Notes: generated from the letters alone by a model not told the origin. Counted from the first letter of the stretch, positions 7,807-63,264 are shown. The stretch: 64,000 bases of DNA from an uncultured Candidatus Saccharibacteria bacterium (GCA_964562615.1 CAZLUD010000001.1:193072-257071), one strand, 5' to 3'. Program-made: numbers and translations.

Positions 7807-7807
7807 A

Positions 7808-9219: not shown

Positions 9220-9795
9220 TTACTTCAAAATAAATGCATCTATTGCGTATCCGATGCCGTATGCAATTGCTGCCGCTACTCCACCAACTAAGAGCATCTC
9301 CATACCAGCATACAGCCAGTGCAGTCGTGTAAAGAGTGCCCTACCACTCCCCACCACAAAAAGGGTAATAGCCGTAGCGATAGCAGAAACTTCAAATTGA
9401 TACTCAGGGGCTACACCAAATAAAAATGGTGTAAGTGGGAGTGTTCCTGCGATAACAAATGCAATAAAGGTAGCGGATCCGTCTCCAATAGGAGAGCGCG
9501 CTTGCACATGAGAGTCTGTATCGTGTACCGCTTGTTCAGAGGAGAGCGCTAAGTATCTTGATGATCCCATCGAGAAACCGTCTGCAATGAGATTTGATAC
9601 TCCCAAGATAATTATTACGGTCGCACCTAAATCTGCTCCTGATGCACCCGAGACAACCGCAAACGTGGTAATAATACCGTCGTTAGCGCCATACACAATT
9701 TCACTCAAGTAATACTGAAACTTGCTACGTATTTGTTCAATCATAACTTCACTAGTGTTCCATGAGTCGTCGTGTACCGCAATAGCTATGCACAA
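9220..9795 (-). CDS. VIT1/CCC1-family protein (PF01988-like) membrane protein
   Basis: The motif YGANDGIITTFAVVSGASGA is the family signature. Hydrophobic helices lie in the C-terminal half. Confidence 0.65.
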   Translation of the reverse strand: MCIAIAVHDDSWNTSEVMIEQIRSKFQYYLSEIVYGANDGIITTFAVVSGASGADLGATVIIILGVSNLIADGFSMGSSRYLALSSEQAVHDTDSHVQARSPIGDGSATFIAFVIAGTLPLTPFLFGVAPEYQFEVSAIATAITLFVVGSGRALFTRLHWLYAGMEMLLVGGVAAAIAYGIGYAIDAFILK

Positions 9796-11111
9796 TCGAG
9801 CGGCTTACTTCCTCGCGCAGTTTCCATTGAATGGTCAGGAAAAAAAGCATAAAAGGTACTTCCTTTGTTCTCTTCAGAAATAAACCAGGTCATGCCTCCG
9901 AGCTCATCGAGTATTTTTTTAACGATGTACAACCCAAGCCCAGTACCATCAACATCAAGCGTCCTAATGTTTTGTGCTCTGAACATCTTTTCATAGAGAC
10001 GAGACTTTTCTTGCACCGGCACGCCATACCCAGAATCAGTAACAGAAAGTAGTATGCCATTTGTTTTTATTGCATGGTCACCAACACATACTTCTCCTTC
10101 TTTCTTTTGCTCAAGACGAATCTCGATAACACTTGTGGGGTACGAATACTTAATGGCATTAGAAATAAAATTACTACACACTATCGATAACAAATTTTTG
10201 TCCGCGACTATATCATACTGTAGCTCGTCATCGATATGTGTTGTTACCGTCATACCCTTTTCCATAATAAGCGGCTGCATACTAACCACCACCTCATCCA
10301 CAAGAGCAGCAAGTGATAGTGTTACAGGTTCAATAGCAAAGGTACCAAGCTCAAGACGTGATACGTTTAACAGCGCATTAACAAGTGTCGTCATTTTTTG
10401 CGTGCTGTCATACGCCTCAGAGAGATACTTTTTTTGAGATGCTGAAATCTCTCCCGCATCACCCGCAAGGAGCATTTCAATGTACCAATTTGCAGTAGCG
10501 AGTGGTGTGCGTAATTGATGAGATGCAACAGAGACAAATTCTGTTTTTGCCGTATCTATTTGCTTTTCTTTTGTAATGTCTCTATCGATACCAACAAAAA
10601 ATTCGACATTGCCGTCATCATCATAAATCGGAGAAATGGTGGTGTGCGTTATGTACCGTTCTCCATTTTTTCTTTTGTTTTCGACTTCACCGATAAAACT
10701 ACGCTTTTGTGAAATAAGTCGTTCAAATACTCCTGCATAAAATACATGTGATGCTTCTGTCCCCCATAGCGATGTGTCTCCTGCCCGCCTTGAAAGCACC
10801 TCAACATTTGAAAATCCCGTTATCTCTTCAACCGCTCTATTGGCGTACGTTATCACTCCATGCGCATCAGTGATAATGATGTGGTCAGAGGCACTTTCAA
10901 CAGCGAGCTTAAATTTCTCTAAATCTTTAGCAATCTCAAGAGCCTTTTCCTTCTCAAGCTCCATATCATGGAGCACATTAGTAAGCGCACTGTATGAAGT
11001 AGCCAAATCTCTATGCTGTTTTTCTAGGCTATCGTCAGTGTGCATGTAGTAGAGGGTAATAAGAGCACTGCAACAGTCGGAACGTATTCCGACTGCGTGC
11101 GCTACTCTCAT
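9786..11111 (-). CDS. PAS-domain sensor histidine kinase
   Basis: The H-box HQLRTPLATANWYIEMLL is present, and the HATPase region contains GTGLGLYIVKKILDELGG. A PAS-like region lies upstream. The gene sits directly 5' of the pilin genes. Confidence 0.8.
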   Translation of the reverse strand: MRVAHAVGIRSDCCSALITLYYMHTDDSLEKQHRDLATSYSALTNVLHDMELEKEKALEIAKDLEKFKLAVESASDHIIITDAHGVITYANRAVEEITGFSNVEVLSRRAGDTSLWGTEASHVFYAGVFERLISQKRSFIGEVENKRKNGERYITHTTISPIYDDDGNVEFFVGIDRDITKEKQIDTAKTEFVSVASHQLRTPLATANWYIEMLLAGDAGEISASQKKYLSEAYDSTQKMTTLVNALLNVSRLELGTFAIEPVTLSLAALVDEVVVSMQPLIMEKGMTVTTHIDDELQYDIVADKNLLSIVCSNFISNAIKYSYPTSVIEIRLEQKKEGEVCVGDHAIKTNGILLSVTDSGYGVPVQEKSRLYEKMFRAQNIRTLDVDGTGLGLYIVKKILDELGGMTWFISEENKGSTFYAFFPDHSMETARGSKPLDCA

Positions 11112-11581
11112 TAACGAGTAACCTGTATTGTCTCATCTAGTTCTGCCTTAGGCGCGATTACTCTCACACGGTTACCAGATGTTGTCGCGATAGAATATCC
11201 GGTGCCATTAGTAAGAGTTGCTCCTTGAGGATCAGTAGGTAGTAGCGTGAGGTACGTCTCACCATCGGTGAGGTCACCCAAAAATACTAGCCCTCCTGAC
11301 GAACAAGTAGTAGATGCTACGCCCGATGCGCATATCTCAATTGGTGAACCATTTGAGGTAAACGGCAACTGTCCGTTTTCGTCGATTGCATACTGATACA
11401 CCGCATTGAGAATTGTGTTTACATCAGCCTTTCTCTGCGCGTTGCGAGTTTCCGCAAGTTGCTTAGATGGGTTGATTGCCACAATCACAATTGATGCAAG
11501 TATACCGATTGCTGCCACTACGAGAAGAATTTCAAGTAGGGTGAAGCCTCGATTTGTTATACGAGTATGTGCTGATTGCAT
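11111..11581 (-). CDS. Type IV pilin-like protein with prepilin-type N-terminal cleavage/methylation domain
   Basis: The N-terminal motif is RGFTLLEILLVVAAIGILASIVIVAINP (G-F-T-L-x-E class III signal). The first ~70 aa are nearly identical to the next ORF. Confidence 0.7.
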   Translation of the reverse strand: MQSAHTRITNRGFTLLEILLVVAAIGILASIVIVAINPSKQLAETRNAQRKADVNTILNAVYQYAIDENGQLPFTSNGSPIEICASGVASTTCSSGGLVFLGDLTDGETYLTLLPTDPQGATLTNGTGYSIATTSGNRVRVIAPKAELDETIQVTR

Positions 11582-11613
11582 AGTCCTCTGATGTTATCGG
11601 CTCACAATAAGGT

Positions 11614-12072
11614 CTATCGTCGTGCTTCGATTGTTTGACCTTGCTCTGCCTTTGGCGCATGTACCACCACACGACCACTTGAGGTGGTTGCAATAGAGTA
11701 ACCAGCACCACTAAGCACTACCCCACCTTGTGGATCAACAGGAACTGAAATGAGATATGTCTCTGCATCAGTAAGGGTACTTAGATCAACCAAACCTGAA
11801 CATGAGTTTGCCCCCGTTGCGCACACCTCGGTCAAAGTTCCAGTCGATGTGAAAGGAAGTCTACCCTCATTGTCAATCGCGTATTGGTATACGGCAGACA
11901 AGATGGTGTTAACGTCAGCGCGACGTTGCGCGTTGCGAGTTTCCGCAAGTTGCTTAGATGGATTAATAGCGACAATAACTATCGATGCAAGAATTCCGAT
12001 TGCTGCCACCACGAGAAGAATTTCAAGTAGGGTGAATCCGCGATTCTGCGTGCTTCGTGAAGAATTATTCAT
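11614..12072 (-). CDS. Type IV pilin-like protein, tandem paralog of 11111..11581
   Basis: Same N-terminal motif RGFTLLEILLVVAAIGILASIV. The first ~70 aa are near-identical to its neighbour, and the C-terminus diverges. Confidence 0.7.
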   Translation of the reverse strand: MNNSSRSTQNRGFTLLEILLVVAAIGILASIVIVAINPSKQLAETRNAQRRADVNTILSAVYQYAIDNEGRLPFTSTGTLTEVCATGANSCSGLVDLSTLTDAETYLISVPVDPQGGVVLSGAGYSIATTSSGRVVVHAPKAEQGQTIEARR

Positions 12073-12181
12073 GCTGAATATTTTTCTAATAATTGCTAAT
12101 AACCGGCTTATTATAGCGCCTTGTTGGTATAGACGCTAAAAAAACTGTGGATTACTTTTTATACAACCACGCACACTCTCT

Positions 12182-12553
12182 CTATTCTATGGTTATTGGG
12201 TTTGTTGAAATAAGCTTAATTTGAGCCGTTTTAACTATGTCGGACACGCTACTTGTCGCAAATAAATATGTACTCTCATTAATTGGTTTTACCATCACTA
12301 CACAATTACCGCCGCCAAATGCAAGAGTCTCCTCCCCGGTATAGGTTGCATGTTCTTTAATACGATACAAACCATGTTCAATACATGATTCGATAAGTTG
12401 TACTGCTTGCGCTTCATAATATGTATGCAGGCTCTGCCGTTCAGTATCTATACCTAACAATAGTATCGGGAGAGCAATCGCAACACCAATAGCACCAGCA
12501 ATCATTGTGGCAAACAACGTGATGTATCCTTGTTCATTCGTTCGAGTAGGCAT
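12182..12553 (-). CDS. Small membrane-anchored protein, possible atypical minor pilin or pilus accessory protein
   Basis: N-terminus QGYITLFATMIAGAIGVAIALPILLLG is a hydrophobic helix with no Glu at +5. The size and location inside the pilin cluster suggest a pilus role. Confidence 0.35.
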   Translation of the reverse strand: MPTRTNEQGYITLFATMIAGAIGVAIALPILLLGIDTERQSLHTYYEAQAVQLIESCIEHGLYRIKEHATYTGEETLAFGGGNCVVMVKPINESTYLFATSSVSDIVKTAQIKLISTNPITIE

Positions 12554-12558
12554 AGTAG

Positions 12559-13074
12559 TTATTGGCGTAATGCTGCAGTGCTTTGTAGTGTGTATTCTGT
12601 TTGTGTTGTATTAGCAAACATAGCACCCTTACGAAACGTAGTGGTCACATTCACTAGCCCAAGTGATGATGACGTTGCAGTGAAGAGTGCCGAAAACTCA
12701 CGTACCACGGTCTCAGGAGAAGTAATGCGCTCAGGTGCTAACGCGCTCTCACTTCTCCATATACCTGACGAAACAAATTCGTATTGTACCGTAGTACCAT
12801 CTTTTTGCTCTAGCACTAGCGTGCTACTAGTACTTAATATAGGTGGATCTAGCACTCGCCACGCCTTTTGTATGTCCTGAGTAATGAGTCGTTGTACCCT
12901 ATCCGCATCTTGAAATAGTTGTGACGTTTCTCTGTGTCGTAATTCTGCACGCATCATGCCGTATATATATGAAGATACCGCTCCTAACACCACTGTCATG
13001 ATGGTGAGGTACAGCATTGTTTCTACTAACGTAAATCCGCGTTGTTTATTCATAGGTGATGTGTACTGATTCAA
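12559..13074 (-). CDS. Pseudopilin or minor pilin with prepilin-type N-terminal domain
   Basis: The N-terminal motif is QRGFTLVETMLYLTIMTVVLGAV. Confidence 0.65.
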   Translation of the reverse strand: MNQYTSPMNKQRGFTLVETMLYLTIMTVVLGAVSSYIYGMMRAELRHRETSQLFQDADRVQRLITQDIQKAWRVLDPPILSTSSTLVLEQKDGTTVQYEFVSSGIWRSESALAPERITSPETVVREFSALFTATSSSLGLVNVTTTFRKGAMFANTTQTEYTLQSTAALRQ

Positions 13075-15844
13075 CGATAGGGGTAGATGATGCCGTATCT
13101 GTCATAAGAAGCATCCGATACTGCAACAATGTATTTGGACCAATTGCGCGAAGCGCATTTGGTATGGCGGCAGACCCATCACCCACCGTATACGGACCAT
13201 ACCAAGGACTAAAAAGTTCTGGGCTGTGCGCTGGTGCATACCTCACCATAAGAGACACAGATGTTGAAGCAGTAGACATCTCTTCCCACGCAATACTACG
13301 AATAGAGACTGTTTCTTTATTAGTATGATACCATCGTGAAGTAAACCAACCCTCCTTTGCATATAGTGGCTCCAATTCTTTTGGTGCAAGAATAAGTAAT
13401 TCTGCAGTATTGTTTTCGCAAGCAACAAACACCATTTGGTGGTATGTGGTAACCCCATTGCAATCACCTGCAGTGTTGTATGTTGATGCGATGGTCGGAT
13501 TTGTTGAAGACGCCACCGTAAGAGCAACAAATCCCGCAGCGTTGTTATTAGTAGCTACAAATACCGTAGGAAATAGTACGCTAATTCCTGTCACATCCTC
13601 TCCTATATTATATGTTCCCTTATAGCGTGGTGCCGTTATGGTAGAGATATCTACTATATGCATATCGCCTTCAGATGATGCATGATTAGTGCCAACATAT
13701 GCAGCGGTGTCAGTAACAGCAACTGAAGTAGCAGATAATGTCCCCGGTATATCCACCAATGCGGTTACCGTAGGTACTGCATGATTGGTTGCATCGAGCA
13801 CCGTCAATTCACTTGTATTGTGATCAGTTGCCAAAAAGAGAGTGGTATTTTGCACATCAATACCAAGCACATCCTCATTTACCTCATACCCCCCTATCTG
13901 CGTAAATGTGACAAAAGAAGGATTGGTGGTATTTGGAACAAGAGTATGGAGCTCATAGTTAAGTCCCGAAGAAGTGTTTTGTATTGTACCGACAAATAAT
14001 GTGGTGCCTACCACTCCTATTGCTCGTGCGTCTGAACCTGAATCAAGATTATAGTAACCAACTTTAATTATGTTGGTAGGATCCTTTACATATAAAACCA
14101 TTATCTCTTCTGAGTTATGTGATGTAGCAAGATATGCAAAATCTCCCACCACCACAACATCAAAGACACTTGCAGAAAGATTGAGTCCATCTAAATAAAG
14201 AGGGGTTGTTGGATCACTCACTTCATATACTGCTATATCCATACTTGCACCGGCATCAGTTCTGGTGACATAGGCAAGCGAGTCAACAACCTCAACATGC
14301 ACTGCGTTATCTGCGCTAACAATATCTTCCTTTGCTACTATGACCGGCTCTGCCCAACCACCTCGGCCAGCAGAAACAACACTCAATACTCCCTGCGCGC
14401 CGCCCGTTATCAAAAAACGTCCCGTCTTTATCATGGCATAGGGACTATAGGCATTCTCTACATCGATACTATCGGTACGGTAATCTGCCAAGGATACTAC
14501 CCTCACCTCGGCACCATATGATGATTCTTGCGCAATAAATAATCGCTCGTGCACATCATCATACGATAGTGACGTGATATTGGATGTGCCGTAATCAGTG
14601 TTTAGCAATTCTTCAACGTCGCTTGTTGGAGTGATTGGATGCTCAAATGAAAGCCCTATAACTCTATTAGTATCCATACCGATAAATACTTGATTCGTGT
14701 GTACACTAATCGCTCTTGCGTTTGGATTGTTTGCGTCACTGGGATTATACGTACGTACCACCTCACAGACCAACTCTGGACATTTTTTATAATCAACTAT
14801 CCATAGTTCGCTCTCATTATCTGTCGCAAGGTACGCGTACTCATCGGTAAGGGCTATTGCGCGAACCGCGTCACCAACCTCAACTGTGCCAAGTAATTCA
14901 CCTGTTTCTAAGTATACAAAAAATTCGCTCTCTACTTGTGTGGGCTTTCCTACCGCTACATACCCATCATGTTGGGCAATTGCTAGCGCACCCGCAGAGC
15001 CGGGTACATCAACGGGAGTAGTACTTGCGGTAGCTCGGTCAAACAACAGCATGTCTGCGTTTTGTGTATTAGTAGCGATAAATACGGTACTAGTTGCAAC
15101 AGCAAGCGAGCGAATACTATGTCCAATGTCATACTCGGCTATTGGGGTAAGTATCCCTTCTGATAGTGCCGCAATATCAAGAAGCGCAAGCTCTGGCGAG
15201 GTGACGCTCTCATCTCGTCCCACATAAAGATATGTTGCATCTGCCCCAAGAGCGCGTAATGATGCGCTACCAGGCAAGTCATGAGTATGAAAGGTAAAGC
15301 CCGTTTTCCAATCCCCTTCTTTTTCAAGAGAAATACTACCGTGTGATTCATCTACATATATAGAGTGTCTCTTACCCAAAGAAAACTCAGCGACAGTGGT
15401 ATCAATAAACGCAAGCATCCCGGATTGTACCCAATTGTAAAAGTAGGTAATAAGAGAAATCATTCGGGTGGCATATCCTCTCTCTTGCCAAGATACCGTG
15501 GCAGTAACTTGCTTGGTGTGCTCATCGTGTGATGCTATTTCAAGCGTACGGGTAAGTTGCTCGTGTACATCGGGAGGGCTATGCAATACATAGCCATCCG
15601 CCTCTACGGTTATACCGTAGGTGCCATCGACAAGATGAGAGAAGCCAGCTTCTCGTATATCGCGCGCAACCTCGATTGCCTGCGTGGCGAGCGCGGTTGC
15701 AGAGAGTCTATGCAATGAATCAGATGTGCTTTCTTCAGAGTACAGCAAGACCCCCGCAAAGACCGTGCTATATATAGCAAGAAGTGCCCCACTCAGTAGT
15801 ACCTCAACAATTGAAAATCCTCTTTCAGAATTACTCATACTCAT
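13046..15844 (-). CDS. Giant pseudopilin (932 aa) with a prepilin-type N-terminus fused to an LVIVD-repeat beta-propeller-like domain, a putative pilus-tip adhesin
   Basis: N-terminus ERGFSIVEVLLSGALLAIYSTVFAG. Over nine repeats of the LVIVD type are present, including YLATDNESELWIVDY, FLATDHNTSELTVLDATN, AYVGTNHASSEGDMHIVDIS, VFVATNNNAAGFVALTVAS and VFVACENNTAELLILAP. Confidence 0.7.
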   Translation of the reverse strand: MSMSNSERGFSIVEVLLSGALLAIYSTVFAGVLLYSEESTSDSLHRLSATALATQAIEVARDIREAGFSHLVDGTYGITVEADGYVLHSPPDVHEQLTRTLEIASHDEHTKQVTATVSWQERGYATRMISLITYFYNWVQSGMLAFIDTTVAEFSLGKRHSIYVDESHGSISLEKEGDWKTGFTFHTHDLPGSASLRALGADATYLYVGRDESVTSPELALLDIAALSEGILTPIAEYDIGHSIRSLAVATSTVFIATNTQNADMLLFDRATASTTPVDVPGSAGALAIAQHDGYVAVGKPTQVESEFFVYLETGELLGTVEVGDAVRAIALTDEYAYLATDNESELWIVDYKKCPELVCEVVRTYNPSDANNPNARAISVHTNQVFIGMDTNRVIGLSFEHPITPTSDVEELLNTDYGTSNITSLSYDDVHERLFIAQESSYGAEVRVVSLADYRTDSIDVENAYSPYAMIKTGRFLITGGAQGVLSVVSAGRGGWAEPVIVAKEDIVSADNAVHVEVVDSLAYVTRTDAGASMDIAVYEVSDPTTPLYLDGLNLSASVFDVVVVGDFAYLATSHNSEEIMVLYVKDPTNIIKVGYYNLDSGSDARAIGVVGTTLFVGTIQNTSSGLNYELHTLVPNTTNPSFVTFTQIGGYEVNEDVLGIDVQNTTLFLATDHNTSELTVLDATNHAVPTVTALVDIPGTLSATSVAVTDTAAYVGTNHASSEGDMHIVDISTITAPRYKGTYNIGEDVTGISVLFPTVFVATNNNAAGFVALTVASSTNPTIASTYNTAGDCNGVTTYHQMVFVACENNTAELLILAPKELEPLYAKEGWFTSRWYHTNKETVSIRSIAWEEMSTASTSVSLMVRYAPAHSPELFSPWYGPYTVGDGSAAIPNALRAIGPNTLLQYRMLLMTDTASSTPIVESVHITYE

Positions 15845-16307
15845 TATGTGCCTCAGTCACCCCATAACGATTTATTACAATAGTTCGTGAACCAAGTGAG
15901 GGCGGTACCAAGGTAATGGATGTAGGGGCAAACTCACGCATACGCGCAGACGAAAATTGAACCTCCCGCGCACCAGTGAGTCCGTATCGAGAACTAAATG
16001 AAATAACCTCATCAGCATGAGGGATTCTCTGTGCGTATGACGGCCCCGCATAGAGGGTAGTACTTGTTGCAGCAACATATACCCCCCACTCCCCCTCTCG
16101 TTTGTTTGAATACGCATATGCACTTGCCCGAGAAATCTGCTCGCGTATTGCTCCCTCCGCAACCTTACTATCTACCCGCTCAAGATACGAAAGATAGACT
16201 GGAGCCATGATTGAAATCATAAGCGCAAAAATACTTACTGAAAGCAGTAATTCTAGGACGGTAAATCCTTTTTGTCTTACGGGTGTTTTACCAGTATGCA
16301 TAGCCAA
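15831..16307 (-). CDS. Pseudopilin (GspH/FimT-like) with prepilin-type N-terminus
   Basis: The N-terminal motif is QKGFTVLELLLSVSIFALMISIMAPV. Confidence 0.65.
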   Translation of the reverse strand: MAMHTGKTPVRQKGFTVLELLLSVSIFALMISIMAPVYLSYLERVDSKVAEGAIREQISRASAYAYSNKREGEWGVYVAATSTTLYAGPSYAQRIPHADEVISFSSRYGLTGAREVQFSSARMREFAPTSITLVPPSLGSRTIVINRYGVTEAHNEYE

Positions 16308-16313
16308 ATGTAA

Positions 16314-17660
16314 TTACAGCTCTCCCTCTCCGGTGCTTGATTCACGTATATCACTTCTTTTTATCCATCCTTCAACTCCAGGTTTAACTATCACCCGTAT
16401 CCAGCTAGGAGTTACCTCGACGACATCGTATCCCACACTCATCTGCGCTCGTTGCATCACCTCTGTTTGCTCATCAGCAACTGCATATACCGGCACATCG
16501 TCAAACAATGTGTAGGCGATATCGCCAATAGGATTACCCTCCGTTACTGGTGCATTTGTCTTTGCTCCCATGTTAAGCCCACTCGTAAGATTGTATACCG
16601 GCAATATCACCGCAAACGCCACCGCAACAACTCCCGCCCATATGATAATAAGAAGTACCGGCTCAATGATGACAGAAAGATTTTTTGTCGCGATATCCGT
16701 ACGCTCTTCATACACCCTTCCTATGTGCATAAAGGTATCTGACAAGGTGCCTGAATTTTCTCCTGCGATAATGAGTTGCCCCACACTAGAAGGAATCAAT
16801 CGTTCGTACGAAGGGTACTCATCAAAAGCAAGCCGAAAGGTGTATCCGTTTTCAATTTGTGTTTCAAGATACGAATAAAATTCTTTATATGAAATAAACG
16901 TTGTCGCATCTTTAAGCGCGCGGATTGCTTCAACGAGCGTAAGACCGCTTGCAAGGAGGGTACCCATGATAAATCCGAGCCGTGACACCTCTATTTGTCG
17001 TACTATATTTTTAATGACCGGCAATCGCTGCATTATCATTTGCCCGATAAAACGAGTCTTTGAATACACAAACACAAAAAACATCGTGAGCGCGATAGTG
17101 ACAATAAATAACGGTACTGCGATTGTTCCGTACTTACTCAAAAATGTTCCAAAATCAATAAGTACCCTCGTAAGAAACGGGAGATCAAGTTGTAGTTGTT
17201 CAAACACAGTAGCGAGTCGTGGCAGAATAAGCCACGATATGCCAATGCCAATAACTAGTGTCACCCCAAGCACAAAGACTGGGTACATCATCGCGCTCTT
17301 TAACTTTGATTTAAACATTCTGTTCTTGCTTTGCGTGGTGACGACAAATTTAAGGTTATGACTTAATCGTCCATTCTCTTCACCTATTTTGACTATCGCA
17401 ACGACATACTCAGGAAATAACCCAGTACGAACTAACGCTTTCCAAAACGGAACGCCATTTTCGATATCTTCTCGTAGTCCAACAATAATTCGCTGCATGG
17501 TGCTACTCTTCATTTCTTTTTGCACCGCATCAACAGCTTGAATTACCCCCAACCCTGACGCGGTAAGGACCGAAAGGTTTTCAATAAAATAATCACGCTC
17601 CTCGCGTATACCAAGAGTTTCAAAAGGAAGCCGTTTGTGTGAGTATTCTGTATTATTCAT
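16314..17660 (-). CDS. pilC: Type IV pilus assembly protein PilC (GspF-family platform protein) with a C-terminal SH3-like extension
   Basis: Two T2SS-F repeats and three TM segments are present. An extra ~80 aa at the C-terminus, VYAVADEQTEVMQRAQMSVGYDVVEVTPSWIRVIVKPGVEGWIKRSDI, resembles SH3b. Confidence 0.85.
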   Translation of the reverse strand: MNNTEYSHKRLPFETLGIREERDYFIENLSVLTASGLGVIQAVDAVQKEMKSSTMQRIIVGLREDIENGVPFWKALVRTGLFPEYVVAIVKIGEENGRLSHNLKFVVTTQSKNRMFKSKLKSAMMYPVFVLGVTLVIGIGISWLILPRLATVFEQLQLDLPFLTRVLIDFGTFLSKYGTIAVPLFIVTIALTMFFVFVYSKTRFIGQMIMQRLPVIKNIVRQIEVSRLGFIMGTLLASGLTLVEAIRALKDATTFISYKEFYSYLETQIENGYTFRLAFDEYPSYERLIPSSVGQLIIAGENSGTLSDTFMHIGRVYEERTDIATKNLSVIIEPVLLIIIWAGVVAVAFAVILPVYNLTSGLNMGAKTNAPVTEGNPIGDIAYTLFDDVPVYAVADEQTEVMQRAQMSVGYDVVEVTPSWIRVIVKPGVEGWIKRSDIRESSTGEGEL

Positions 17661-17663
17661 GAA

Positions 17664-19346
17664 TTATTCTGCGCGTGACGGTGGCACTACACGCACAAGC
17701 TCAGCTATGGTGGTTTCTCCATGAAGAACTTTTTCCATGCCATTTTCAAACATGGATTGCGTACCTAAGGTACGTGCAAGTGTCCACACCTCATGCGCAT
17801 TAGGTGATGCGACAATACACTCCTGCATCTCTTTTCCTACAGGGATAAGCTCAAACACTCCCGTTCTTCCTGAGAATCCGCTATGGTTACATGCCTCGCA
17901 TCCTTTACCCTCATACGCAACCAAACTTTTTCCTTGTATCATGTTCGCTGCTTGTGGTGAAAGATTGGACACCTCTTCTTTGCTTATTTCTTTACTATAT
18001 TTACACTGCTCGCATATCCTTCTCACAAGCCGCTGCCCGATAACCAGCTCAAGGGTGGACGAAAGTAGAAATGACTCGATACCCATATCAAGAAGACGAG
18101 GTATTGCGGTAGCGGCATCATTTGCGTGAAAGGTAGAAAATAGCAAGTGCCCAGTAAGTGCGGCGTTAACCGCAATTTCTGCTGTCTCCTTATCACGGAT
18201 CTCGCCCACCAAAATAATATCCGGGTCTTGTCTCACAATCGACCGAAGTCCTTCAGCAAATGAGAGGTTGGTCTGATTATTTACCGACATATGATTAACT
18301 CCCTCTATTTTGTATTCAACCGGATCCTCAATGGTTGCAATGTTTATTTCTGGATTATTTAAAATCTTTATGAGTGAGTACAACGTGGTTGTCTTTCCTG
18401 AACCCGTAGGACCAGTTACCAAAATCATGCCGAATGGCTTTTTTGCGGCAGCAAGAAGAATTGTTTGGTGTGCATCAGATAGCCCAATATCACCAAGAGT
18501 AAAGTTACGAATATATGACGAAAGCACTCTAATTACCACTTTTTCTCCATCGATGAGTGGCAATATTGAGACGCGCAAATCCACCGATATGGTTGGTGTT
18601 CTAAATCGTATAGCTCCATCTTGCGCGGCACGATGTTCATCAGTTCGTAACCGTCCAAGTACTTTTATTCTGTTTAACACCGTCTCATACAAATCTTTAG
18701 GCAACCTTCCCGCTTCCTTTAATATGCCATCAATACGAAAACGAATGATCACCTCACCCTCTCGCGGTTCAAAGTGAATATCCGATGCTCTAAATACGAG
18801 CGCCTCTTCAACTATCTCTTCAATAAGCGTAGGGGCGATGCGTCTGTCTTTGGTTTCTATGATACTTGCAAATCGGGTCGAGAGCGCCTTTCTGTATTCA
18901 ATCAATATTGCGTCTATATCAATAGGAAGCGAAAATGCGAGTACTATTTTTTTCTGGGGAAAAAGCTCCTTTAGTGCACCTAGAAGTCCTCGGGCTTTTG
19001 GACTGTCTGTAGCAACCACATACTCGGTATCTCTTTTTTCAAAGAGTACTACCCTATACTTAACGGCAATCTCTTCTGGAATTTCTACAATCTGATCATG
19101 TGGTGGCTTGTGTGAGTTAAGGTCTGCATACACCACAGAAAAGTGCTCTGAAATCGCTTGACCGAGTAAGTCATTTGTAATGAGGTTCTCCTTATAAAGA
19201 TACTCAAGCGCGTGGGTATCCTCTTTTTCTGCAAAATCAAGTGCTTTCTGCTTATCTTCTAGAGCGATATAGTTTCCAGAAACTAAAATCGAAAGCATTT
19301 TTTCATCAGCAACATGTGTTGCCTTTCCAGACTTTTGTAGTGCCAT
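17664..19346 (-). CDS. pilB: Type IV pilus assembly ATPase PilB (GspE family)
   Basis: An N-terminal T2SSE_N-like domain is followed by the Walker A motif VTGPTGSGKTTTLYS. The C-terminus has the tetracysteine motif CEQC...CEAC. Confidence 0.9.
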   Translation of the reverse strand: MALQKSGKATHVADEKMLSILVSGNYIALEDKQKALDFAEKEDTHALEYLYKENLITNDLLGQAISEHFSVVYADLNSHKPPHDQIVEIPEEIAVKYRVVLFEKRDTEYVVATDSPKARGLLGALKELFPQKKIVLAFSLPIDIDAILIEYRKALSTRFASIIETKDRRIAPTLIEEIVEEALVFRASDIHFEPREGEVIIRFRIDGILKEAGRLPKDLYETVLNRIKVLGRLRTDEHRAAQDGAIRFRTPTISVDLRVSILPLIDGEKVVIRVLSSYIRNFTLGDIGLSDAHQTILLAAAKKPFGMILVTGPTGSGKTTTLYSLIKILNNPEINIATIEDPVEYKIEGVNHMSVNNQTNLSFAEGLRSIVRQDPDIILVGEIRDKETAEIAVNAALTGHLLFSTFHANDAATAIPRLLDMGIESFLLSSTLELVIGQRLVRRICEQCKYSKEISKEEVSNLSPQAANMIQGKSLVAYEGKGCEACNHSGFSGRTGVFELIPVGKEMQECIVASPNAHEVWTLARTLGTQSMFENGMEKVLHGETTIAELVRVVPPSRAE

Positions 19347-19376
19347 ACGGACAAACGGTTAACGTAGCGCCTCTCA

Positions 19377-19793
19377 CTATCGTGTAAGTATTGCTCTCTT
19401 AGTGTGTATTCTGCTAATTTCTGCCTTTTGGTGTGGGATATAGGTTTGTACTAATTCCACAATTTTATGAAGTGGCGTGTTTGATTTAATAAAATAGTCA
19501 CTTGCACCAAGCTCTCGAACTCGTGCGATATCTTCTCGCTGGCTTAAATTGCTACAGACAAGAATACGCACTCCCTTTTTTCCTAACACCTTAAGTACAG
19601 AGAACCCGTCCATGACCGGCATAACCAAATCGAGAATCACCACATCAAATTCGCTTGCTTCAAATGCCTCGATTCCTTGTTTGCCATTATGCGCAACCAC
19701 CACCTCATACCCCTCCCTCGTTAGCTTAAGCTCTAATGCGCGCGCCATAGGGCGCTCGTCATCCACTACCAAAATGCGGTAACTGTAAGCCAT
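19377..19793 (-). CDS. Single-domain response regulator (CheY-like receiver)
   Basis: ILVVDDERPMARALELKL...FDVVILDLVMPVMDGF carries the conserved Asp residues. It lies directly upstream of pilB. Confidence 0.8.
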   Translation of the reverse strand: MAYSYRILVVDDERPMARALELKLTREGYEVVVAHNGKQGIEAFEASEFDVVILDLVMPVMDGFSVLKVLGKKGVRILVCSNLSQREDIARVRELGASDYFIKSNTPLHKIVELVQTYIPHQKAEISRIHTKRAILTR

Positions 19794-55374: not shown

Positions 55375-55800
55375 CTATTTGTAGCGCTCCACGATGCCTC
55401 GTTCTACTCTAAATCCAGTAGTAACCGAGCAGGTGGTGTTGTAGCCACGAGAGCGTATTTCACCAGTGGTGCTATTAACCGATACTACCGCGCAACCTCT
55501 TCCTGGTATATCAAGGGTGAAATTACCGTTACTAGGCCCGACGGTAAATGACTGGCTAAGACACGTGATGGTCTTTCCTTCATCAAAGGCTCCTTGTATC
55601 GCCCAATAAAGTGCGCAGTCAGAACCCGATTTTGCTGCATAAAGTGCTATTTGTGATACTTCACCAAAATTAGCAAGGCGAAGTTCTTTGGTCATTATTT
55701 GCATAACTGATGCACTCACCGAAAGCACAAGCGTAATGATAAGCATCGCATACAGAAGCGTAAAACCTTTATTCATAGTGTTGGGGTGCTTGGTATGCAT
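55375..55800 (-). CDS. Minor pilin-like protein (prepilin-type N-terminus without Glu5)
   Basis: N-terminus NKGFTLLYAMLIITLVLSVSASV. First gene of pilus locus B. Confidence 0.5.
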   Translation of the reverse strand: MHTKHPNTMNKGFTLLYAMLIITLVLSVSASVMQIMTKELRLANFGEVSQIALYAAKSGSDCALYWAIQGAFDEGKTITCLSQSFTVGPSNGNFTLDIPGRGCAVVSVNSTTGEIRSRGYNTTCSVTTGFRVERGIVERYK

Positions 55801-55802: not shown

Positions 55803-56414
55803 TTATGATTCTAGTTCTGCTTCACGTTTTGCTTTTGCTGCATTAAAGTCATACATAATTCTTGAAACGGTCATTGTCTTAGCACCAGAAGGTACATCCC
55901 ACGTCAAAATAACCTCAATAAGATTTTCATCCAAGTTACCATTTGGTTGCGTGACGCGAATTGTTCGCGTGTATTCAGATACCCCCCAACTACTGTTATA
56001 TCCATAAAACGATCCGGTAGAATCCTTTCTCATTGGCGGGCATGCCGAGGTGCATCTTGATATTGCATTAGCAGGCGTTGCCGCAGGTGCGACGGTGGTG
56101 TCCATGATACATCCATAGGTGCCTCCGCAGTTGGTACGGGCGTACGCAAAGCCGGCTGTTCCGTTTTTGGTGTCGTTGTCTCGTATATTAGTGAGGAGCT
56201 CCATGGCATCCTGCCCTAAAAAGAATGCAGTGATTTGCTCACGCGTATACGCAGCAGAATTAAGTGATCGTTGTACGAGCGCCATCGGACCAACCAAAGA
56301 AACAATAAGTACCGCAACCGCCACCAATGTTTCAATAAGGGTGAACCCAGCTTGCGTATCACCGTTTACACGATTATGTGGGTGTTGCTTCATCATGCTA
56401 GAACTCGGTCTCAT
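55803..56414 (-). CDS. Pseudopilin with prepilin-type N-terminus
   Basis: The N-terminal motif is QAGFTLIETLVAVAVLIVSLVGPMAL. Confidence 0.65.
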   Translation of the reverse strand: MRPSSSMMKQHPHNRVNGDTQAGFTLIETLVAVAVLIVSLVGPMALVQRSLNSAAYTREQITAFFLGQDAMELLTNIRDNDTKNGTAGFAYARTNCGGTYGCIMDTTVAPAATPANAISRCTSACPPMRKDSTGSFYGYNSSWGVSEYTRTIRVTQPNGNLDENLIEVILTWDVPSGAKTMTVSRIMYDFNAAKAKREAELES

Positions 56415-57999
56415 TAGTGACAGAACCAGATGTATTTCTCACTTCAGTAGTAGGAGCTAAACAACTATTTGAACAAGCGCCGCCAGTTGAGCATAGCCTG
56501 CAATCAAGTCCTGTAGTGCTCATGCCTGGGTCAACACATCCAGTAACTGCGCATGGCTGACCAGGTATACATATCGCACAGTTGATAACCGTTGTAGTGG
56601 TACCGCCACCGTTATTTACGACATCAAGGCATAGTGGAGAACACGTACCACCAGTAGTACAAGGTCTACAGTCTAGGTTATAGACAATATATGTATCCCT
56701 TTTATACACACTTACGCGCTTTATACTTCCACTGTTTGGTGTACCAAATCCTCCAACCCAATATGAATTGTTACCATAATTCATGGTAGTAGAGACAGTT
56801 GGCTCTGCCTGACTAGCATTGGTGAGATTGCTTGGAAGTGGATGAAATGCCTTTAGCTGGCACGTGATACCGTTTTGTGTCGTCGCTGGAAGAGATCCAT
56901 TAGTATAAGGGGCATTTCCTGCGTATGCGCGTATCGACATTAAATCTTCACACTTATTGCCCGAGTAATCTTCAGCAACAACCTTCAAATCGTATGAGAA
57001 AGTCAAATTGGTGTTTCTGAAATCAAGCAATACATAACGGCCACTTGTTTTACAATACCCTTTTCCGCTCACGCTTCCACTAAAGTCACAGTCCCACAAC
57101 GGACTAGCGCTCCATGCACCAACGACTTGAGTTGAGAATGTAGCACACGCAGGGTCATATGTACTTGGACTGTTTGCGTCAGGACCTTCGCCCTTTTCGC
57201 ATCTACCATTAGTAGTGGTAACTGAGGGAGTTGTAGTGGTGGTGGTGCAATCTGGTGAATTGCTGTTTTCATTGTAAAAACATCTACCATCCCCCGGTGT
57301 TGGATTGTTGGGTACGGTGGTAGAAGGACAATCAAGTGGATGTGTTTGGTATGACTCACCATAGTTACATTGCCCGTTGCCAGCTAATTCACCAGGATTG
57401 TAGGTATAGGTATACGCAACTGTGGTATCAACAGGTAGCGCCTCAGAAACCGTTGTTTGGATATTAAATGCAGTCTTTGTGCCATTACGCTCGCCTGCCT
57501 CACCCCGCACTACAATAAAGGCACGCCGCTGATTATCCCCTAATCCAGTCACAAAGAATCTACCGTACGAAAGATTTACATTAGGCGCGGTCATTGCTAC
57601 ATACGGTCCCGATGCGCCATTTTTAGACAAGAGCAATTGTCCTGATGAAGAAAAAGCATATACCCATTGATCAGCAGTAGTGCTTGTGTTTCCACCACGA
57701 GGCTCAAATGCGATGTACGTACCGCCTCCCTGACAATCCTGCTCGGTTGCAATAGAAGAATTATTTACGCTATTTGCACAGTGATACGTGCTACCGTCTC
57801 GAATGGTTCGAGACATAGAATCAAGTGCTGCGTTAAGATTATTAAATACCAACTTTTGTGATCGGGCTTTTTCATTACCGGTCATAAGCGATACAAACGA
57901 ACCAACCGTAACAAGTGCAACCACACTAAATAGTGCAAGTGCAACCAGCGTCTCCACTAATGTGTACCCTCGTATGTATCTTGTAGATGTAGTATTCAT
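56398..57999 (-). CDS. Large pseudopilin (533 aa) with a Cys-rich repetitive C-terminal region
   Basis: N-terminus RGYTLVETLVALALFSVVALV. The C-terminus has repeated CxxC-type blocks (CRPCTTGGTCSPLC...CAICIPGQPCAVTGC...CRLCSTGGACSNSC). Confidence 0.65.
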   Translation of the reverse strand: MNTTSTRYIRGYTLVETLVALALFSVVALVTVGSFVSLMTGNEKARSQKLVFNNLNAALDSMSRTIRDGSTYHCANSVNNSSIATEQDCQGGGTYIAFEPRGGNTSTTADQWVYAFSSSGQLLLSKNGASGPYVAMTAPNVNLSYGRFFVTGLGDNQRRAFIVVRGEAGERNGTKTAFNIQTTVSEALPVDTTVAYTYTYNPGELAGNGQCNYGESYQTHPLDCPSTTVPNNPTPGDGRCFYNENSNSPDCTTTTTTPSVTTTNGRCEKGEGPDANSPSTYDPACATFSTQVVGAWSASPLWDCDFSGSVSGKGYCKTSGRYVLLDFRNTNLTFSYDLKVVAEDYSGNKCEDLMSIRAYAGNAPYTNGSLPATTQNGITCQLKAFHPLPSNLTNASQAEPTVSTTMNYGNNSYWVGGFGTPNSGSIKRVSVYKRDTYIVYNLDCRPCTTGGTCSPLCLDVVNNGGGTTTTVINCAICIPGQPCAVTGCVDPGMSTTGLDCRLCSTGGACSNSCLAPTTEVRNTSGSVTNETEF

Positions 58000-58019: not shown

Positions 58020-58604
58020 TTATCGTGGTACTGAAATCTGTCCTGTTGTGTATATTTCAACTAACTGCTCATACCCTTGTGAGCTCTTAAGATAAAACTG
58101 CCCGCGAGGGTATTCAGCAGTAGTTCCCGCTACTCGTATAACCGCCTCTGGATTGGGTCGTTGAAAGGTTACAACAAGCGCCGAGGAGGTACTGCAACTT
58201 GCTGAACCGGCATTATTAAGTACGCATACCCTATCAAGCCCAATGCCCGGTGGAAAGGCAAGTGTCTCAATGACCGTGTCTACTCCACTTGAATACTGCT
58301 TGTCTTGGTCGATGTCACTAAAAAATGTGATTGTGCCACCATTAAGGCCCGTTGCATGGACTCCGTATCCAACATCAAAATCGCTTCCCTCGCCTCTTAC
58401 CGCAACTCCATATGATTGTGCTTGTCGTAGCATTACCGCAAGCTCGTATCCAACGTTAGTAAGCTGTAAGTTACCCCTTCCTGAGGCGCCACCGGCAAGT
58501 ACCATTATTGAGACCATGATAAAAATAGATGTAACTACCAATACCTCAACAAGGGTAAATGCCTTGGTGTTAGTAGAAGAGACTTGTTGGGAGAGTGAAT
58601 GCAT
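58020..58604 (-). CDS. Pseudopilin (GspH/FimT-like). The likely start is the Met preceding KAFTLVEVL.
   Basis: Contains TKAFTLVEVLVVTSIFIMVSIMVLAG. The longer ORF to 58733 overlaps pilD, so an internal start is more plausible. Confidence 0.6.
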   Translation of the reverse strand: MHSLSQQVSSTNTKAFTLVEVLVVTSIFIMVSIMVLAGGASGRGNLQLTNVGYELAVMLRQAQSYGVAVRGEGSDFDVGYGVHATGLNGGTITFFSDIDQDKQYSSGVDTVIETLAFPPGIGLDRVCVLNNAGSASCSTSSALVVTFQRPNPEAVIRVAGTTAEYPRGQFYLKSSQGYEQLVEIYTTGQISVPR

Positions 58605-59385
58605 TGATAGAAAAAAATAACACGAGTAGAAATCCAATCGCAAGAAATGGAGCGAACGGTACTTCACTATGTATTGTAAGTGAGTTCTGCATAAACGGAA
58701 AGCCGTAGCGCTTGATAAGTAATAGTACAACACTAACCACTGCCCCTATCCAAAACGCAAGCATAAATGACGAGAGGGCTCCGACTATACCAAGAAACCA
58801 CCCAATACCAAGCGCAAGCTTTGCATCCGCAAAACCTATCCACGCTCCTTTTGATATAACCCATAACGCTGCAAATGGAAATGCAGCGAGTGCGCCACTA
58901 AGGAGTAGTAGTGGGTCAGGATGCATCACCAGACTTCCCTCATCTATGTATACAGAAAGTAGTGCAAGGACATTAAAGCTATACACAAACACATCTGGAA
59001 TAATTTTGTGTCGTAGGTCATACACCACAATAGCAACAAGGGTTGCTATTGCCGCGAGTAAGATACCCGCATCAATAACATTAGTTGTTATAAACGGAAC
59101 AGATGCAAATAGCACTCCCGTTGCTATCTCTACCAATAAATACTGTAGCGAGAGGGGCTTTTTGCATGTGCGGCATCTTCCTCGTAAAAAGATATATGAA
59201 AATAGCGGCACTAATTCATACGCACGGAGGGTACGCATGCAGTGTGGACAGTGTGACCTGCCGGTTATTGTTTCTCCCTTTTCAATACGTAGCACCACAA
59301 CATTAACAAAACTGCCAATACTCACGCCGAGGAGAAATAAAAATCCAATGATTATTTCTAGTTCCATGTATAGCAATAATAACAC
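58570..59385 (-). CDS. pilD: Prepilin peptidase (A24 family, PilD)
   Basis: N-terminal zinc-binding CPHC...CRTC, the catalytic-Asp region VYDLRHKIIPD, and multiple TM helices. Confidence 0.85.
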   Translation of the reverse strand: MLLLLYMELEIIIGFLFLLGVSIGSFVNVVVLRIEKGETITGRSHCPHCMRTLRAYELVPLFSYIFLRGRCRTCKKPLSLQYLLVEIATGVLFASVPFITTNVIDAGILLAAIATLVAIVVYDLRHKIIPDVFVYSFNVLALLSVYIDEGSLVMHPDPLLLLSGALAAFPFAALWVISKGAWIGFADAKLALGIGWFLGIVGALSSFMLAFWIGAVVSVVLLLIKRYGFPFMQNSLTIHSEVPFAPFLAIGFLLVLFFSINAFTLPTSLFY

Positions 59386-59430: not shown

Positions 59431-59883
59431 CTACGGTTTTACACAAAAAACGGCATCGGTTGGACCAGCCACTCCACAATTGATAGTTCCTAGTTGTGTA
59501 CCATCAAGATCGTTTGCAAGCGCTGGGCTACCGGTGTTTTCAAGAGTCGCACCAATTACGTAAGTAGTATTACCTGTCCCAGTTGTATATGCATATGCAG
59601 CTCTTGTGCTTGGATCAGTAGGAATGGTGCTTATGAAAGTACCGAGAGTGACACCTGAGCAACCATTTGCAACATTAGGCGTTAAAGGACCTGCTGGATA
59701 CTGTCCACAAGAGTCGAAGTATAGCTCAAACGCAAGCTGAAGTTGCTTAATATCAGTTACGCGAGTTGCATCTCGTCCCTTTGATCTTGCGCTGTTAAGA
59801 GACGCAAGCACGACGCTAGAGAGAATACCGATAATTGCGATAACCACCAAGAGCTCGATGAGGGTAAAACCTTTTTGCTTCAT
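59431..59883 (-). CDS. Type IV pilin (PilA-like, candidate major pilin)
   Basis: The N-terminal motif is KGFTLIELLVVIAIIGILSSVVLASLNSAR, a canonical type IVa N-terminus. A C-terminal Cys pair is present. Followed by a strong terminator. Confidence 0.75.
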   Translation of the reverse strand: MKQKGFTLIELLVVIAIIGILSSVVLASLNSARSKGRDATRVTDIKQLQLAFELYFDSCGQYPAGPLTPNVANGCSGVTLGTFISTIPTDPSTRAAYAYTTGTGNTTYVIGATLENTGSPALANDLDGTQLGTINCGVAGPTDAVFCVKP

Positions 59884-59913: not shown

Positions 59914-60426
59914 CTAATCGCAGTCGGTCGAGATACTGCCAGAAGGACCTTCTAGGCTATGCATACCGGAGGAAAGTCCACCGGATCCGACTTCGAGATA
60001 GAAACACACCTGATAGTCTTCTGAGGTTGCCCCCGCGTCACCATCTGTCGTACTGATAGAATACTGACACTGCGCTGTACCTCCGCTTTCACAAGCGGTG
60101 GTACCAACAGGATCAGTATATCGTGCAAGTTCGACAAAATTACCAGGGCCAGTACATGCAGTAAGCATATCATCCGCATCAGTACATCCCTCAATTTCAA
60201 CCGCGGCATCATCTGAGGTTATAGACATGACCTTAGCGATTTCGCGCATATCTGCCATACGAGTGGCATCACGTGCCTTTGCTCTTGCGCTGTTAAGAGA
60301 CGCAAGAACAACGCTAGAGAGAATACCGATAATTGCTATTACTACCAAAAGCTCAATAAGGGTGAAGCCTTTGTTGGCTTTCTTAGAAAATTCCACTGAA
60401 GCGCTTCGCCCTGTGGTTGTATTCAT
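59914..60426 (-). CDS. Type IV pilin paralog (PilA-like) with identical N-terminal 30 aa and divergent C-terminus
   Basis: The N-terminal motif is KGFTLIELLVVIAIIGILSSVVLASLNSARAKARDATR. The first ~100 nt are near-identical to the neighbouring pilin. The C-terminus is Cys-containing and acidic. Confidence 0.7.
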   Translation of the reverse strand: MNTTTGRSASVEFSKKANKGFTLIELLVVIAIIGILSSVVLASLNSARAKARDATRMADMREIAKVMSITSDDAAVEIEGCTDADDMLTACTGPGNFVELARYTDPVGTTACESGGTAQCQYSISTTDGDAGATSEDYQVCFYLEVGSGGLSSGMHSLEGPSGSISTDCD

Positions 60427-62862: not shown

Positions 62863-63264
62863 TTAGCTATGCTTTTTCTTATACACTTCAAGCACCTTTG
62901 CAAGCACTTCTGATGGTACTGAGTTTGCTTTTATGATGTAGCCATCTGCGCCAAGTTTTTGCGCCTTCTCAATATCAGACTCTTGTCCTTGATTGGACAA
63001 CATGATAACCACGGGATTACCACCTAGCTTTTCAGCTTTGACGGTCTCAAGAATTTTTAATCCATCAACCTCGGGCATCACCACATCAAGAATAAGCGCA
63101 TCGGCGACAAATCCATCTCGAAGTTTTTCGAGTGCCTGAATACTATCAAGAAACCCTTCAACCTCTATCCCTGCCTCCTTAAATTTGATGCTATACATCT
63201 CTAGCAAAAATTGATCATCATCAACCACAAGAATCTTTTTTGGCTTTTTTTCAGTGTCGGTCAT
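62863..63264 (-). CDS. Single-domain response regulator (CheY-like receiver)
   Basis: KILVVDDDQFLLEMY...ALILDVVMPEVDGLKIL. It is positioned between the second pilB and pilT. Confidence 0.8.
   Translation of the reverse strand: MTDTEKKPKKILVVDDDQFLLEMYSIKFKEAGIEVEGFLDSIQALEKLRDGFVADALILDVVMPEVDGLKILETVKAEKLGGNPVVIMLSNQGQESDIEKAQKLGADGYIIKANSVPSEVLAKVLEVYKKKHS

Follow-up and report, generated by a model that had tools for sequence, protein, structure and literature searches.

Type IV pili (T4P) are a recognised hallmark of the Candidate Phyla Radiation (CPR), whose genomes encode PilB, PilT, PilC, PilMNO and PilD and no PilQ (PMC6744442). In one member of the group, Nanosynbacter lyticus TM7x, it was demonstrated experimentally that a single organism makes two T4P (Grossman et al., ISME J 2025, PMC11623550). 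T4P-1 is thick, essential and responsible for twitching, and T4P-2 is thin, lacks PilT, serves in host binding and competition and has a propeller-bearing minor pilin, PilX2 (PMC11623550). It is a central open question in the field by what means uncultivated CPR bacteria locate their hosts and attach to them, and type IV pili are the main candidates. Here we analyse a stretch of 64,000 nucleotides (the window) from a bacterium recorded as uncultured Candidatus Saccharibacteria (GCA_964562615.1, CAZLUD010000001.1:193072-257071), a member of the Patescibacteria/CPR. Two gene sets for type IV filaments, locus A and locus B, are encoded in the window; they diverged long ago, are intact and differ greatly from each other. 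Two pilus systems in one tiny genome have already been published for a related group (Saccharibacteria TM7x), and the present locus mainly extends that finding to another CPR lineage and overturns nothing known. What it adds is a PilT-less cassette that is ancient and CPR-wide, with its own two-component pair and a module-swapping candidate tip pilin, together with a recurrent fusion of PilC to a predicted SH3b domain.

Both loci are encoded entirely on the minus strand, with operon-like short gaps and overlaps between their genes. Locus A runs from position 19793 down to 9786, and its order is receiver, PilB, PilC, four minor pilins, two major-type pilins and a PAS kinase. Locus B occupies the end of the window, from 64000 down to 55375, and is a canonical CPR operon resembling those of type IVa pili (T4aP), which continues past the window edge. 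The upstream part of locus B was read from near-identical contigs (L005, L087 and L088), and the full order is pilM-pilN-pilO-x-pilB-REC-pilT-pilC-2 pilins-pilD-4 minor pilins, where REC stands for the receiver gene. Comparison of the two sets revealed that the ATPase cores of PilB-A and PilB-B are 42-46% identical, the platform proteins PilC-A and PilC-B 25% and the two receivers 33%. The resemblance between A and B pilins is confined to the N-terminal helix, and BLAST detected no one-to-one orthology between their minor pilins. PilB-A, PilB-B and PilT all have intact Walker A and Walker B motifs as well as intact Asp and His boxes, and the PilT of locus B carries the AIANLIRE signature. PilB-A has two CxxC pairs, whereas PilB-B has two isolated cysteines and no CxxC; two such pairs form the zinc-binding tetracysteine motif that is characteristic of PilB and GspE. 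When locus A was compared with that of a sister genome (L007), whose PilB-A is 97% identical, the ratio of nonsynonymous to synonymous substitution rates (dN/dS) was between roughly 0.02 and 0.15 for every gene. The minor pilins of locus A have a dN that is 6-10 times that of PilB and an amino acid identity of 65-77% against 97%.

A preliminary description of the window had recognised two separate pilus gene sets on the same strand, and their intact open reading frames (ORFs) and intact catalytic motifs bear it out. The limits that it gave for locus A (9786..19793) coincide exactly with the kinase gene at one end and the receiver gene at the other. It had also noted PilD and PilT as extra parts of locus B and a PAS kinase and a propeller pilin as extra parts of locus A, all of which were recovered with Pfam, NCBIfam and AlphaFold2 (AF2), and its perception that the pilin repertoires differ was accurate. 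Each locus does possess its own PilB, PilC, receiver and pilin set, but the word complete has to be withdrawn, because locus A lacks PilD, PilT and PilMNO and locus B is cut at the window edge. The five or six pseudopilins counted in locus A are in fact four minor pilins and two major-type paralogs. Two findings that would have undone the description were looked for. Recent segmental duplication is ruled out by the identities of PilB, PilC and the receivers and by pilins that are alike in the N-terminal helix only. Disabling mutations were seen in neither set, and a decaying copy is ruled out by the intact ORFs and motifs and by dN/dS values that do not exceed 0.15. Further, the phylogeny of PilB that had been suggested was built by neighbour joining from 62 PilB/GspE-type ATPases (536 columns) and rooted with the PilT of the window. 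The A-type PilB proteins of 19 CPR loci formed a clade in 94 of 100 bootstraps and the B-type proteins did so in all 100, in a tree that comprises no characterised Com, MSH or T4b references. The two clades were sisters in only 12 of 100 replicates, which places the duplication or acquisition that separated A from B before the divergence of the sampled CPR lineages.

Relatives of locus A were obtained by scanning one genome per species with PilB-A, calling ORFs in the 21 best loci within 10 kb on either side of each match and comparing them with the window proteins. One close relative was found, the 97% identical protein of L007, a genome labelled ‘uncultured Candidatus Saccharibacteria’. PilB-A is otherwise 50-56% identical to proteins in metagenome-assembled genomes (MAGs) labelled Uhr-, Doudna-, Falkow-, Davies-, Pacei-, Adler- and Peribacteria. 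Many proteins match PilB-B along its whole length at 61-66% identity, and those with a name are labelled Parcubacteria, Paceibacterota/Paceibacteria, Kaiserbacteria and Wolfebacteria. The labels of these MAGs are inconsistent: loci with the same CPR cassette appear as ‘uncultured Gammaproteobacteria’ (among the records of L007, L009 and L025), and the same submitter has clearly given some labels that cannot be relied on. Some 20 loci, spread over many Patescibacteria lineages, contain the A-type cassette. Its recurrent parts are a PilB with an adjacent receiver, a short PilC, a minor pilin of about 150 residues, a minor pilin of very variable size, two small minor pilins and one or two major pilins with 47-60% identity to their counterparts in the window, usually accompanied by a large PAS kinase and often by a second receiver. 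Orthologs of the histidine kinase flank the cassette in L007, L008, L012, L013, L015, L017, L019, L020, L021 and L024. PilM, PilN, PilO, PilD and PilT were found within 10 kb in none of the 21 A-type loci.

The second minor pilin of locus A (13046..15844, or from 15838; 930-932 amino acids, RGFSIVE) is presented by the structural model as a modular type IV pilin with two tandem β-propellers of the LVIVD type. The protein comprises a pilin module (residues ~1-170), two propeller regions (~184-450 and ~483-810) and a C-terminal part of ~120 residues of unknown fold. Its own match to LVIVD is weak. In the AF2 model, the two regions are all-beta at a predicted local distance difference test score (pLDDT) of 70-90, with ~6-7 four-stranded blades in the first and 7 in the second by strand count. 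Foldseek against the PDB returned the tandem-propeller proteins Utp21, DDB1 and EML-like (E~1e-16), and a sequence search against the same database gave no significant match. Only three full-length homologs (100%, 67% and 25% identity) exist among 5.8 billion proteins, and because of this scarcity the AF2 alignment is shallow and the model partly confident. LVIVD is recorded for homologs P0003-P0006, and weaker partial matches carry LVIVD repeats. With its orthologs at the corresponding position of related loci, the 932-residue pilin has only the first ~130-150 residues in common (31-38% identity), and their lengths vary from 145 to 1409 residues. LVIVD is above the Pfam threshold in 5 of 10 of these orthologs; in the others, Pfam identified fn3, a SpaA-like prealbumin fold, DUF4082 or nothing. 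Both hallmarks of a modular pilin, an N-terminal pilin module and an exchangeable functional module, are present, and we infer that the second minor pilin of the A-type cassette is a fast-evolving, module-swapping adhesin. The literature searched contains no mention of LVIVD together with a pilin or pilus.

The platform protein PilC-A (16314..17660, 448 amino acids) matches Pfam T2SSF twice. Alignment demonstrated that PilC-A and its orthologs begin ~45-60 residues later than PilC-B and that the T2SSF_N region is gone. Three hydrophobic segments are followed by an 86-residue tail. GspF and PilC have an accepted topology with the N-terminus inside and three transmembrane segments, and for this reason the tail of PilC-A should be extracytoplasmic. 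AF2 modelled PilC-A at a pLDDT of 86.9 and placed a confident small beta-barrel at residues 380-442, after a disordered linker. The best Foldseek matches of this barrel were bacterial SH3b domains of Clostridium and Bacillus proteins, a phage endolysin and NlpC/P60 enzymes (TMt 0.62-0.73), and the tail alone gave no significant match to the PDB by sequence. SH3_3 (PF08239) is present at the extracytoplasmic C-terminus in 44 of the best 120 homologs of PilC-A (P0128-P0241). The tail is thus predicted to be an SH3b domain, and the PilC-SH3b fusion to be recurrent; no description of such an architecture was found in the literature searched. SH3b domains commonly bind peptidoglycan, and a wall anchor of this kind on PilC-A would be a reasonable substitute for the missing alignment complex. 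A second envelope protein of the window also bears an SH3b domain: it has 207 amino acids (3468-4091, minus strand), a His/Glu-rich N-terminus and a C-terminal SH3_3 (E=7e-10).

The remaining genes of locus A complete the cassette. The receiver (19377..19793) is a single-domain CheY-like response regulator of 138 amino acids (Pfam Response_reg, E=4e-22), whose gene lies 30 nt upstream of that of PilB-A and whose ortholog adjoins the A-type PilB in most related loci. The extension ATPase PilB-A (17664..19346, 560 amino acids) matches T2SSE (E=3e-124) and MshEN (E=1e-7), and in its MshEN-like N-terminal domain the first cyclic di-GMP-binding motif lacks, by eye, the conserved arginine. Minor pilin 1 (15831..16307, or from 16301; 156-158 amino acids, KGFTVLE) matches N_methyl and has orthologs at the same position, and minor pilin 3 (12559..13074, or from 13053; 164-171 amino acids, RGFTLVE) matches the same family (E=3e-8) and has orthologs in related loci. 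Minor pilin 4 (12182..12553, 123 amino acids, QGYITLF) has a hydrophobic N-terminal helix, no Glu5 and no Pfam match; it occupies a GspK/PilX-like position and has same-position orthologs in 17 related loci. It is the exception among the six pilin-like proteins of the locus, five of which carry the class III prepilin site (K/R)G↓F(T/S)xxE. The two major-type paralogs (11614..12072, 152 amino acids; 11111..11581, 156 amino acids) both match N_methyl, are 68% identical to each other and have a content of Gly, Ala, Ser and Thr (GAST) of 38.8% and 37.8%, respectively. The first is 96% identical to its counterpart in the sister MAG and 47-60% in other CPR loci, and the second has N-terminal NCBIfam matches to GspG/PilA below cutoff. 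A gap of 109 nt precedes the first paralog and contains a TATAAT seen by eye; a promoter and terminator scan of locus A gave 17 promoter-like sites against 26 expected and nothing usable. The cassette ends with a soluble PAS-HisKA-HATPase histidine kinase (9786..11111, 441 amino acids in the longest ORF; Pfam PAS_9, HisKA and HATPase_c), which has no transmembrane segment and overlaps the stop codon of the preceding pilin by 1 nt. A gene for a VIT1-family iron/manganese transporter (9220-9795, minus strand) shares 10 nt with the end of the kinase gene, an arrangement kept in the sister MAG L007, and it may be co-transcribed with the cassette.

Locus B contains the parts that locus A does not have. 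Beyond the window edge, the near-identical contigs encode PilM, a 241-residue protein at the position of PilN, PilO, a 120-residue protein and a PilB of 607 residues; there, PilM matches PilM_2 (E=9.5e-34), PilO matches its Pfam family (E=2.6e-10) and the 241-residue protein has no Pfam match. The window itself holds the C-terminal ~242 residues of PilB-B (63270..64000; T2SSE profile positions 182-369), and the full-length protein (L005, 7755-9578) matches T2SSE and MshEN. Between PilB-B and PilT lies a single-domain response regulator of 133 amino acids (62863..63264; Response_reg, E=2.5e-19). The retraction ATPase PilT (61744..62847, 367 amino acids) scores 431 bits against TIGR01420 pilT_fam, above the cutoff of 319. 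PilC-B (60531..61736, 401 amino acids) is a full-length platform with two T2SSF matches and with T2SSF_N recorded on an identical protein. The two pilins that follow both read KGFTLIE and match N_methyl: one has 170 amino acids (59914..60426; E=7.5e-10), a GAST content of 42.9%, six cysteines and a gap of 104 nt before it, and the other has 150 amino acids (59431..59883) and a GAST content of 40%. The prepilin peptidase/N-methyltransferase PilD (58570..59367, or from 59385; 265 amino acids; A24_N_bact, E=9.5e-30, and Peptidase_A24, E=2.8e-9), also called as a 265-residue gene in L004, is the only prepilin peptidase of the window. Of the four minor pilins, the first (58020..58604, 194 amino acids, KAFTLVE) and the third (55803..56414, or from 56396; 197-203 amino acids, AGFTLIE) match N_methyl and are supported by gene calls in L004, of 194 residues in the case of the first. 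The fourth (55375..55800, 141 amino acids, KGFTLLY) lacks Glu5, has no Pfam match and was recognised by its motif; it is the last gene before ligA. The second (56398..57999, 533 amino acids, RGYTLVE) has below-cutoff N-terminal NCBIfam matches to ComGE/GspJ and N_methyl as its only Pfam domain. It has a large poly-Thr linker and a C-terminal region with 24 cysteines in repeats such as LDCRxCxTGGxCSxxCL, which to judge from this pattern is probably a disulfide-rich tip module.

Assignment of the two loci to a class of type IV machinery was based on NCBIfam models and on solved structures. PilB-A scored 480.6 bits with PilB (cutoff 675.65), 459.6 with GspE (cutoff 630), 249 with ComGA (cutoff 300) and 47.7 with the TadA family. 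PilC-A scored 143.5 bits with PilC (cutoff 700), 175 with GspF (cutoff 424) and 134 with ComGB (cutoff 240), and its best matches were HofC and GspF. The ComGC model reached 23.5 on locus A against a cutoff of 75, and in both loci the equivalog cutoff was reached by PilT alone. The best PDB matches of PilB-A are Thermus PilF and Geobacter PilB (~340 bits), with BfpD at 132 bits. These scores and solved relatives place both systems in the branch of T4aP and type II secretion systems (T2SS), not in the T4b or Tad branch. All the components expected of a type IVa system (PilB and PilT ATPases, PilC, PilD, PilM/O, class III pilins and four minor pilins) are present in locus B. The core of locus A is also of this type, with a PilB/GspE-clade ATPase that has intact boxes and a tetracysteine motif, a T2SSF platform and class III pilins. 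A peptidase, retraction ATPase and PilMNO of its own, as a self-sufficient system would have, are missing from it, as are the ComGA/B/C equivalogs of Com, the GspE/F plus GspC/D/L/M set of a T2SS and the BfpD/TcpT- or TadA/CpaF-type ATPase of type IVb/Tad systems.

Taken together, two divergent and intact gene sets on the same strand, unrelated pilin repertoires and a PilT in only one of them make two distinct filaments the most economical reading, and we consider this reading fairly probable as a whole. The pilus of locus B would extend and, through PilT, retract, and is likely to be the motile and force-generating filament. PilB-A and PilC-A would build a second, chemically different filament from their own major pilins. 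Locus A is not self-sufficient because it has no prepilin peptidase, and because its prepilins carry the G↓F..E site they would have to be cut by the single PilD of locus B. The four minor pilins of locus A may prime assembly and end up at the tip, where the double propeller would be exposed as an adhesin for a ligand on the host or on a surface. The SH3b domain of PilC-A probably ties the machine to the peptidoglycan of the cell itself, in place of PilMNO. The locus A filament, which has no dedicated PilT, could be non-retractile, retract slowly by itself or borrow the PilT of locus B. As for control, CheY-like regulators of T4P motors are known in other phyla. Because the kinase lacks a membrane segment and the receiver an output domain, this PAS kinase and CheY-like receiver probably gate PilB-A by protein-protein contact between receiver and ATPase and not by transcription. 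The idea of two functionally distinct filaments, already put forward in the preliminary description, is strengthened by the divergence of the sets, by the presence of PilT in only one and by the TM7x precedent; the split that it offered as an example, adhesion or competence on one side and twitching on the other, remains hypothetical. Its remark that such duplication is notable for a small genome loses weight, given that T4P are a CPR hallmark (PMC6744442), that dual T4P have been published and that the A-type cassette occurs in many CPR lineages.

Several points weigh against two separate machines with these roles. Locus A has no PilD, PilT or PilMNO, so that its standing as an independent machine may be doubted. 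T4P-2 of TM7x has its own PilM2/N2/O2 and locus A has none, and the likeness between them is maybe functional only. The dS values against the sister genome are saturated (>1) and the dN/dS values rough, and the PilB tree is a neighbour-joining tree of 536 columns from which characterised Com, MSH and T4b references are absent. In addition, the AF2 model of the 932-residue pilin has a mean pLDDT of 62, with the pilin module and the last 120 residues poorly predicted, and the Pfam SH3 match of PilC-A itself is below threshold (SH3_4, E=0.0024).

Some of these observations can be accommodated by a single machine with two cartridges, in which locus A would be an alternative module of motor, platform and pilins mounted on the basal body of locus B (PilMNO, PilD and PilT), with switching or mixing under the control of the PAS kinase. 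PilD, PilMNO and PilT are missing from locus A here and from the 21 related loci and are supplied by locus B and its upstream extension only, and a TM7x pilB2 mutant retained competitive fitness. We nevertheless regard this arrangement as unlikely, because the PilB and PilC of locus A are under strong purifying selection and the distinct architecture of PilC-A, which lacks the N-terminal domain and has an SH3b tail, speaks for a platform of its own and not for a swap-in part. Moreover, the Com pili of monoderms assemble without PilMNO, as textbooks describe. Locus A might itself be a Com-like DNA-uptake pilus, a short competence filament of a naturally competent CPR cell that scavenges nucleotides. 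Such a pilus would explain the comG-like parts (an ATPase, a short platform about as long as ComGB, a single major pilin type with four minor pilins, a peptidase encoded elsewhere and neither PilMNO nor PilT) and the alignment of PilC-A to positions 3-330 of 332 of the ComGB model, and competence and pilus genes are over-represented in CPR genomes (PMC6744442). We consider it improbable: ComGA/B/C are below their cutoffs and far under PilB/GspE/HofC/GspF (249 against 480 bits; 134 against 180 bits), PilB-A has a long MshEN-like N-terminal region that ComGA is without, the mature major pilins have ~141-145 residues and not ~90, and a 932-residue tip pilin with a double propeller is no feature of Com. 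Further, comEA, comEC and dprA were not found among the window ORFs scanned, and T4P-2 mutants of TM7x are reported to have no competence defect.

A T2SS-like pseudopilus that drives proteins across the wall or an S-layer, with no external pilus at all, is highly improbable. It would be in keeping with a GspE score of PilB-A close to its PilB score (459.6 against 480.6 bits), with HofC and GspF as best matches of PilC-A, with NCBIfam matches of the pilins to the N-termini of GspG/GspH and with four minor pseudopilins that, in T2SS-like fashion, include a member without Glu5. Yet none of GspC, GspD, GspL and GspM turned up in the A-type loci or their surroundings, every Gsp model scores far under its cutoff, and the best matches among solved structures are the T4aP proteins PilF and PilB. 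CPR bacteria have neither an outer membrane nor a secretin (PMC6744442), and a huge propeller pilin suits display better than the work of a piston.

Within the two-filament reading, the recurrence of the cassette allows a broader and more tentative proposal, which we consider possible though doubtful: that the A-type cassette represents a distinct, vertically inherited, CPR-wide family of type IV filaments, with a PilB gated by PAS kinase and CheY, an N-truncated PilC and an exchangeable tip-pilin module. In such a family, gating would be post-translational, through a dedicated soluble PAS kinase and a CheY-like receiver acting on PilB, and about a third of the PilC proteins would have an extracytoplasmic SH3b domain as their wall anchor instead of PilMNO. 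The tip module (LVIVD propeller, fn3, SpaA-like or none) would set the specificity for host or substrate, like the receptor-binding proteins of phages. If this is true, the tip-pilin module would be a predictor of CPR host range that can be read from sequence. The propeller domain, the SH3b tail and the kinase provide testable handles for studies of host specificity.

Other regions of the window deserve mention. Just downstream of locus A lies an alpha-glucan metabolism cluster (4125-9058, minus strand) encoding a GH15 glucoamylase-like protein (663 amino acids), a GH57 protein (409 amino acids) and a GT4/GT5 starch-synthase-like protein (416 amino acids). An ORF of 1190 amino acids (28988-32560, minus strand) has an N-terminal hydrophobic segment, Peptidase_S74 at residues 965-1017 and a C-terminal bacterial surface Ig-like domain, and it is located in the stretch with the highest GC content of the window (49% against ~43%). 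Peptidase_S74 is the intramolecular chaperone of endosialidase and tail-spike proteins, and the product could serve as a large fibre or adhesin at the surface or stem from a phage. The stretch from 36000 to 40000 is low in GC (35-38% against a mean of ~43%), holds an asparagine synthase (37248-39035), a 349-residue protein without a Pfam match and a NUDIX protein, and may have been acquired horizontally.

The comparison with known systems can be drawn at several levels. No inner-membrane or cytoplasmic part of the canonical T4aP of Pseudomonas, Myxococcus and Thermus is missing from locus B. Each of the two loci encodes four minor pilins, including one that lacks Glu5, and the β-propeller adhesin at the presumed tip recalls the C-terminal propeller of PilY1. 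In contrast to the canonical systems, there is no PilQ secretin or PilP here, as expected for CPR envelopes, and the propeller of locus A is fused into a pilin, whereas PilY1 is a separate protein docked on the minor pilins. The Com (ComG) pili of monoderms share with locus A a minimal set of parts, with no alignment complex, no retraction ATPase, a peptidase encoded elsewhere and a platform of ComGB length. Locus A departs from them in its PilB-like ATPase with an N-terminal domain, its larger pilins, the position of the minor pilins before the major ones, its giant adhesin pilin and its two-component pair. The modular pilins of Streptococcus sanguinis (a vWA module on PilB and a lectin module on PilC; PMC8179133, PMC9934059) resemble the 932-residue pilin in that an adhesion module is grafted on a pilin module and in that relatives retain the pilin part but differ in the module. 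Unlike them, the protein described here would have as its module a tandem LVIVD β-propeller of ~630 residues, and the CPR family swaps propeller, fn3, SpaA-like, DUF4082 or no module.

The closest parallel is with TM7x, where an ultrasmall CPR genome also has two T4P machineries, only one of which includes PilT, and where a propeller-bearing minor pilin belongs to the PilT-less set. The first locus of TM7x and locus B both contain PilMNO, PilB, PilT, PilC, PilD and pilins, and the major pilins of TM7x have a high GAST content, as do those of the window (38-43% against 26% for PilB). The differences concern locus A. T4P-2 is split over separate loci and adjoins recA/recX, whereas locus A is one contiguous cassette bracketed by a PAS kinase and a receiver, and its PilC is N-truncated and predicted to be SH3b-tailed. 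PilX2 has a single 7-bladed propeller of the RCC1 type, and the locus A pilin a predicted double one of the LVIVD type; the latter may be functionally comparable to the PilY1 propeller or to PilX2, yet its propeller is fused to the pilin and duplicated. In conclusion, locus A, likened to T4P-2 by its published description, matches it in logic and not in layout.

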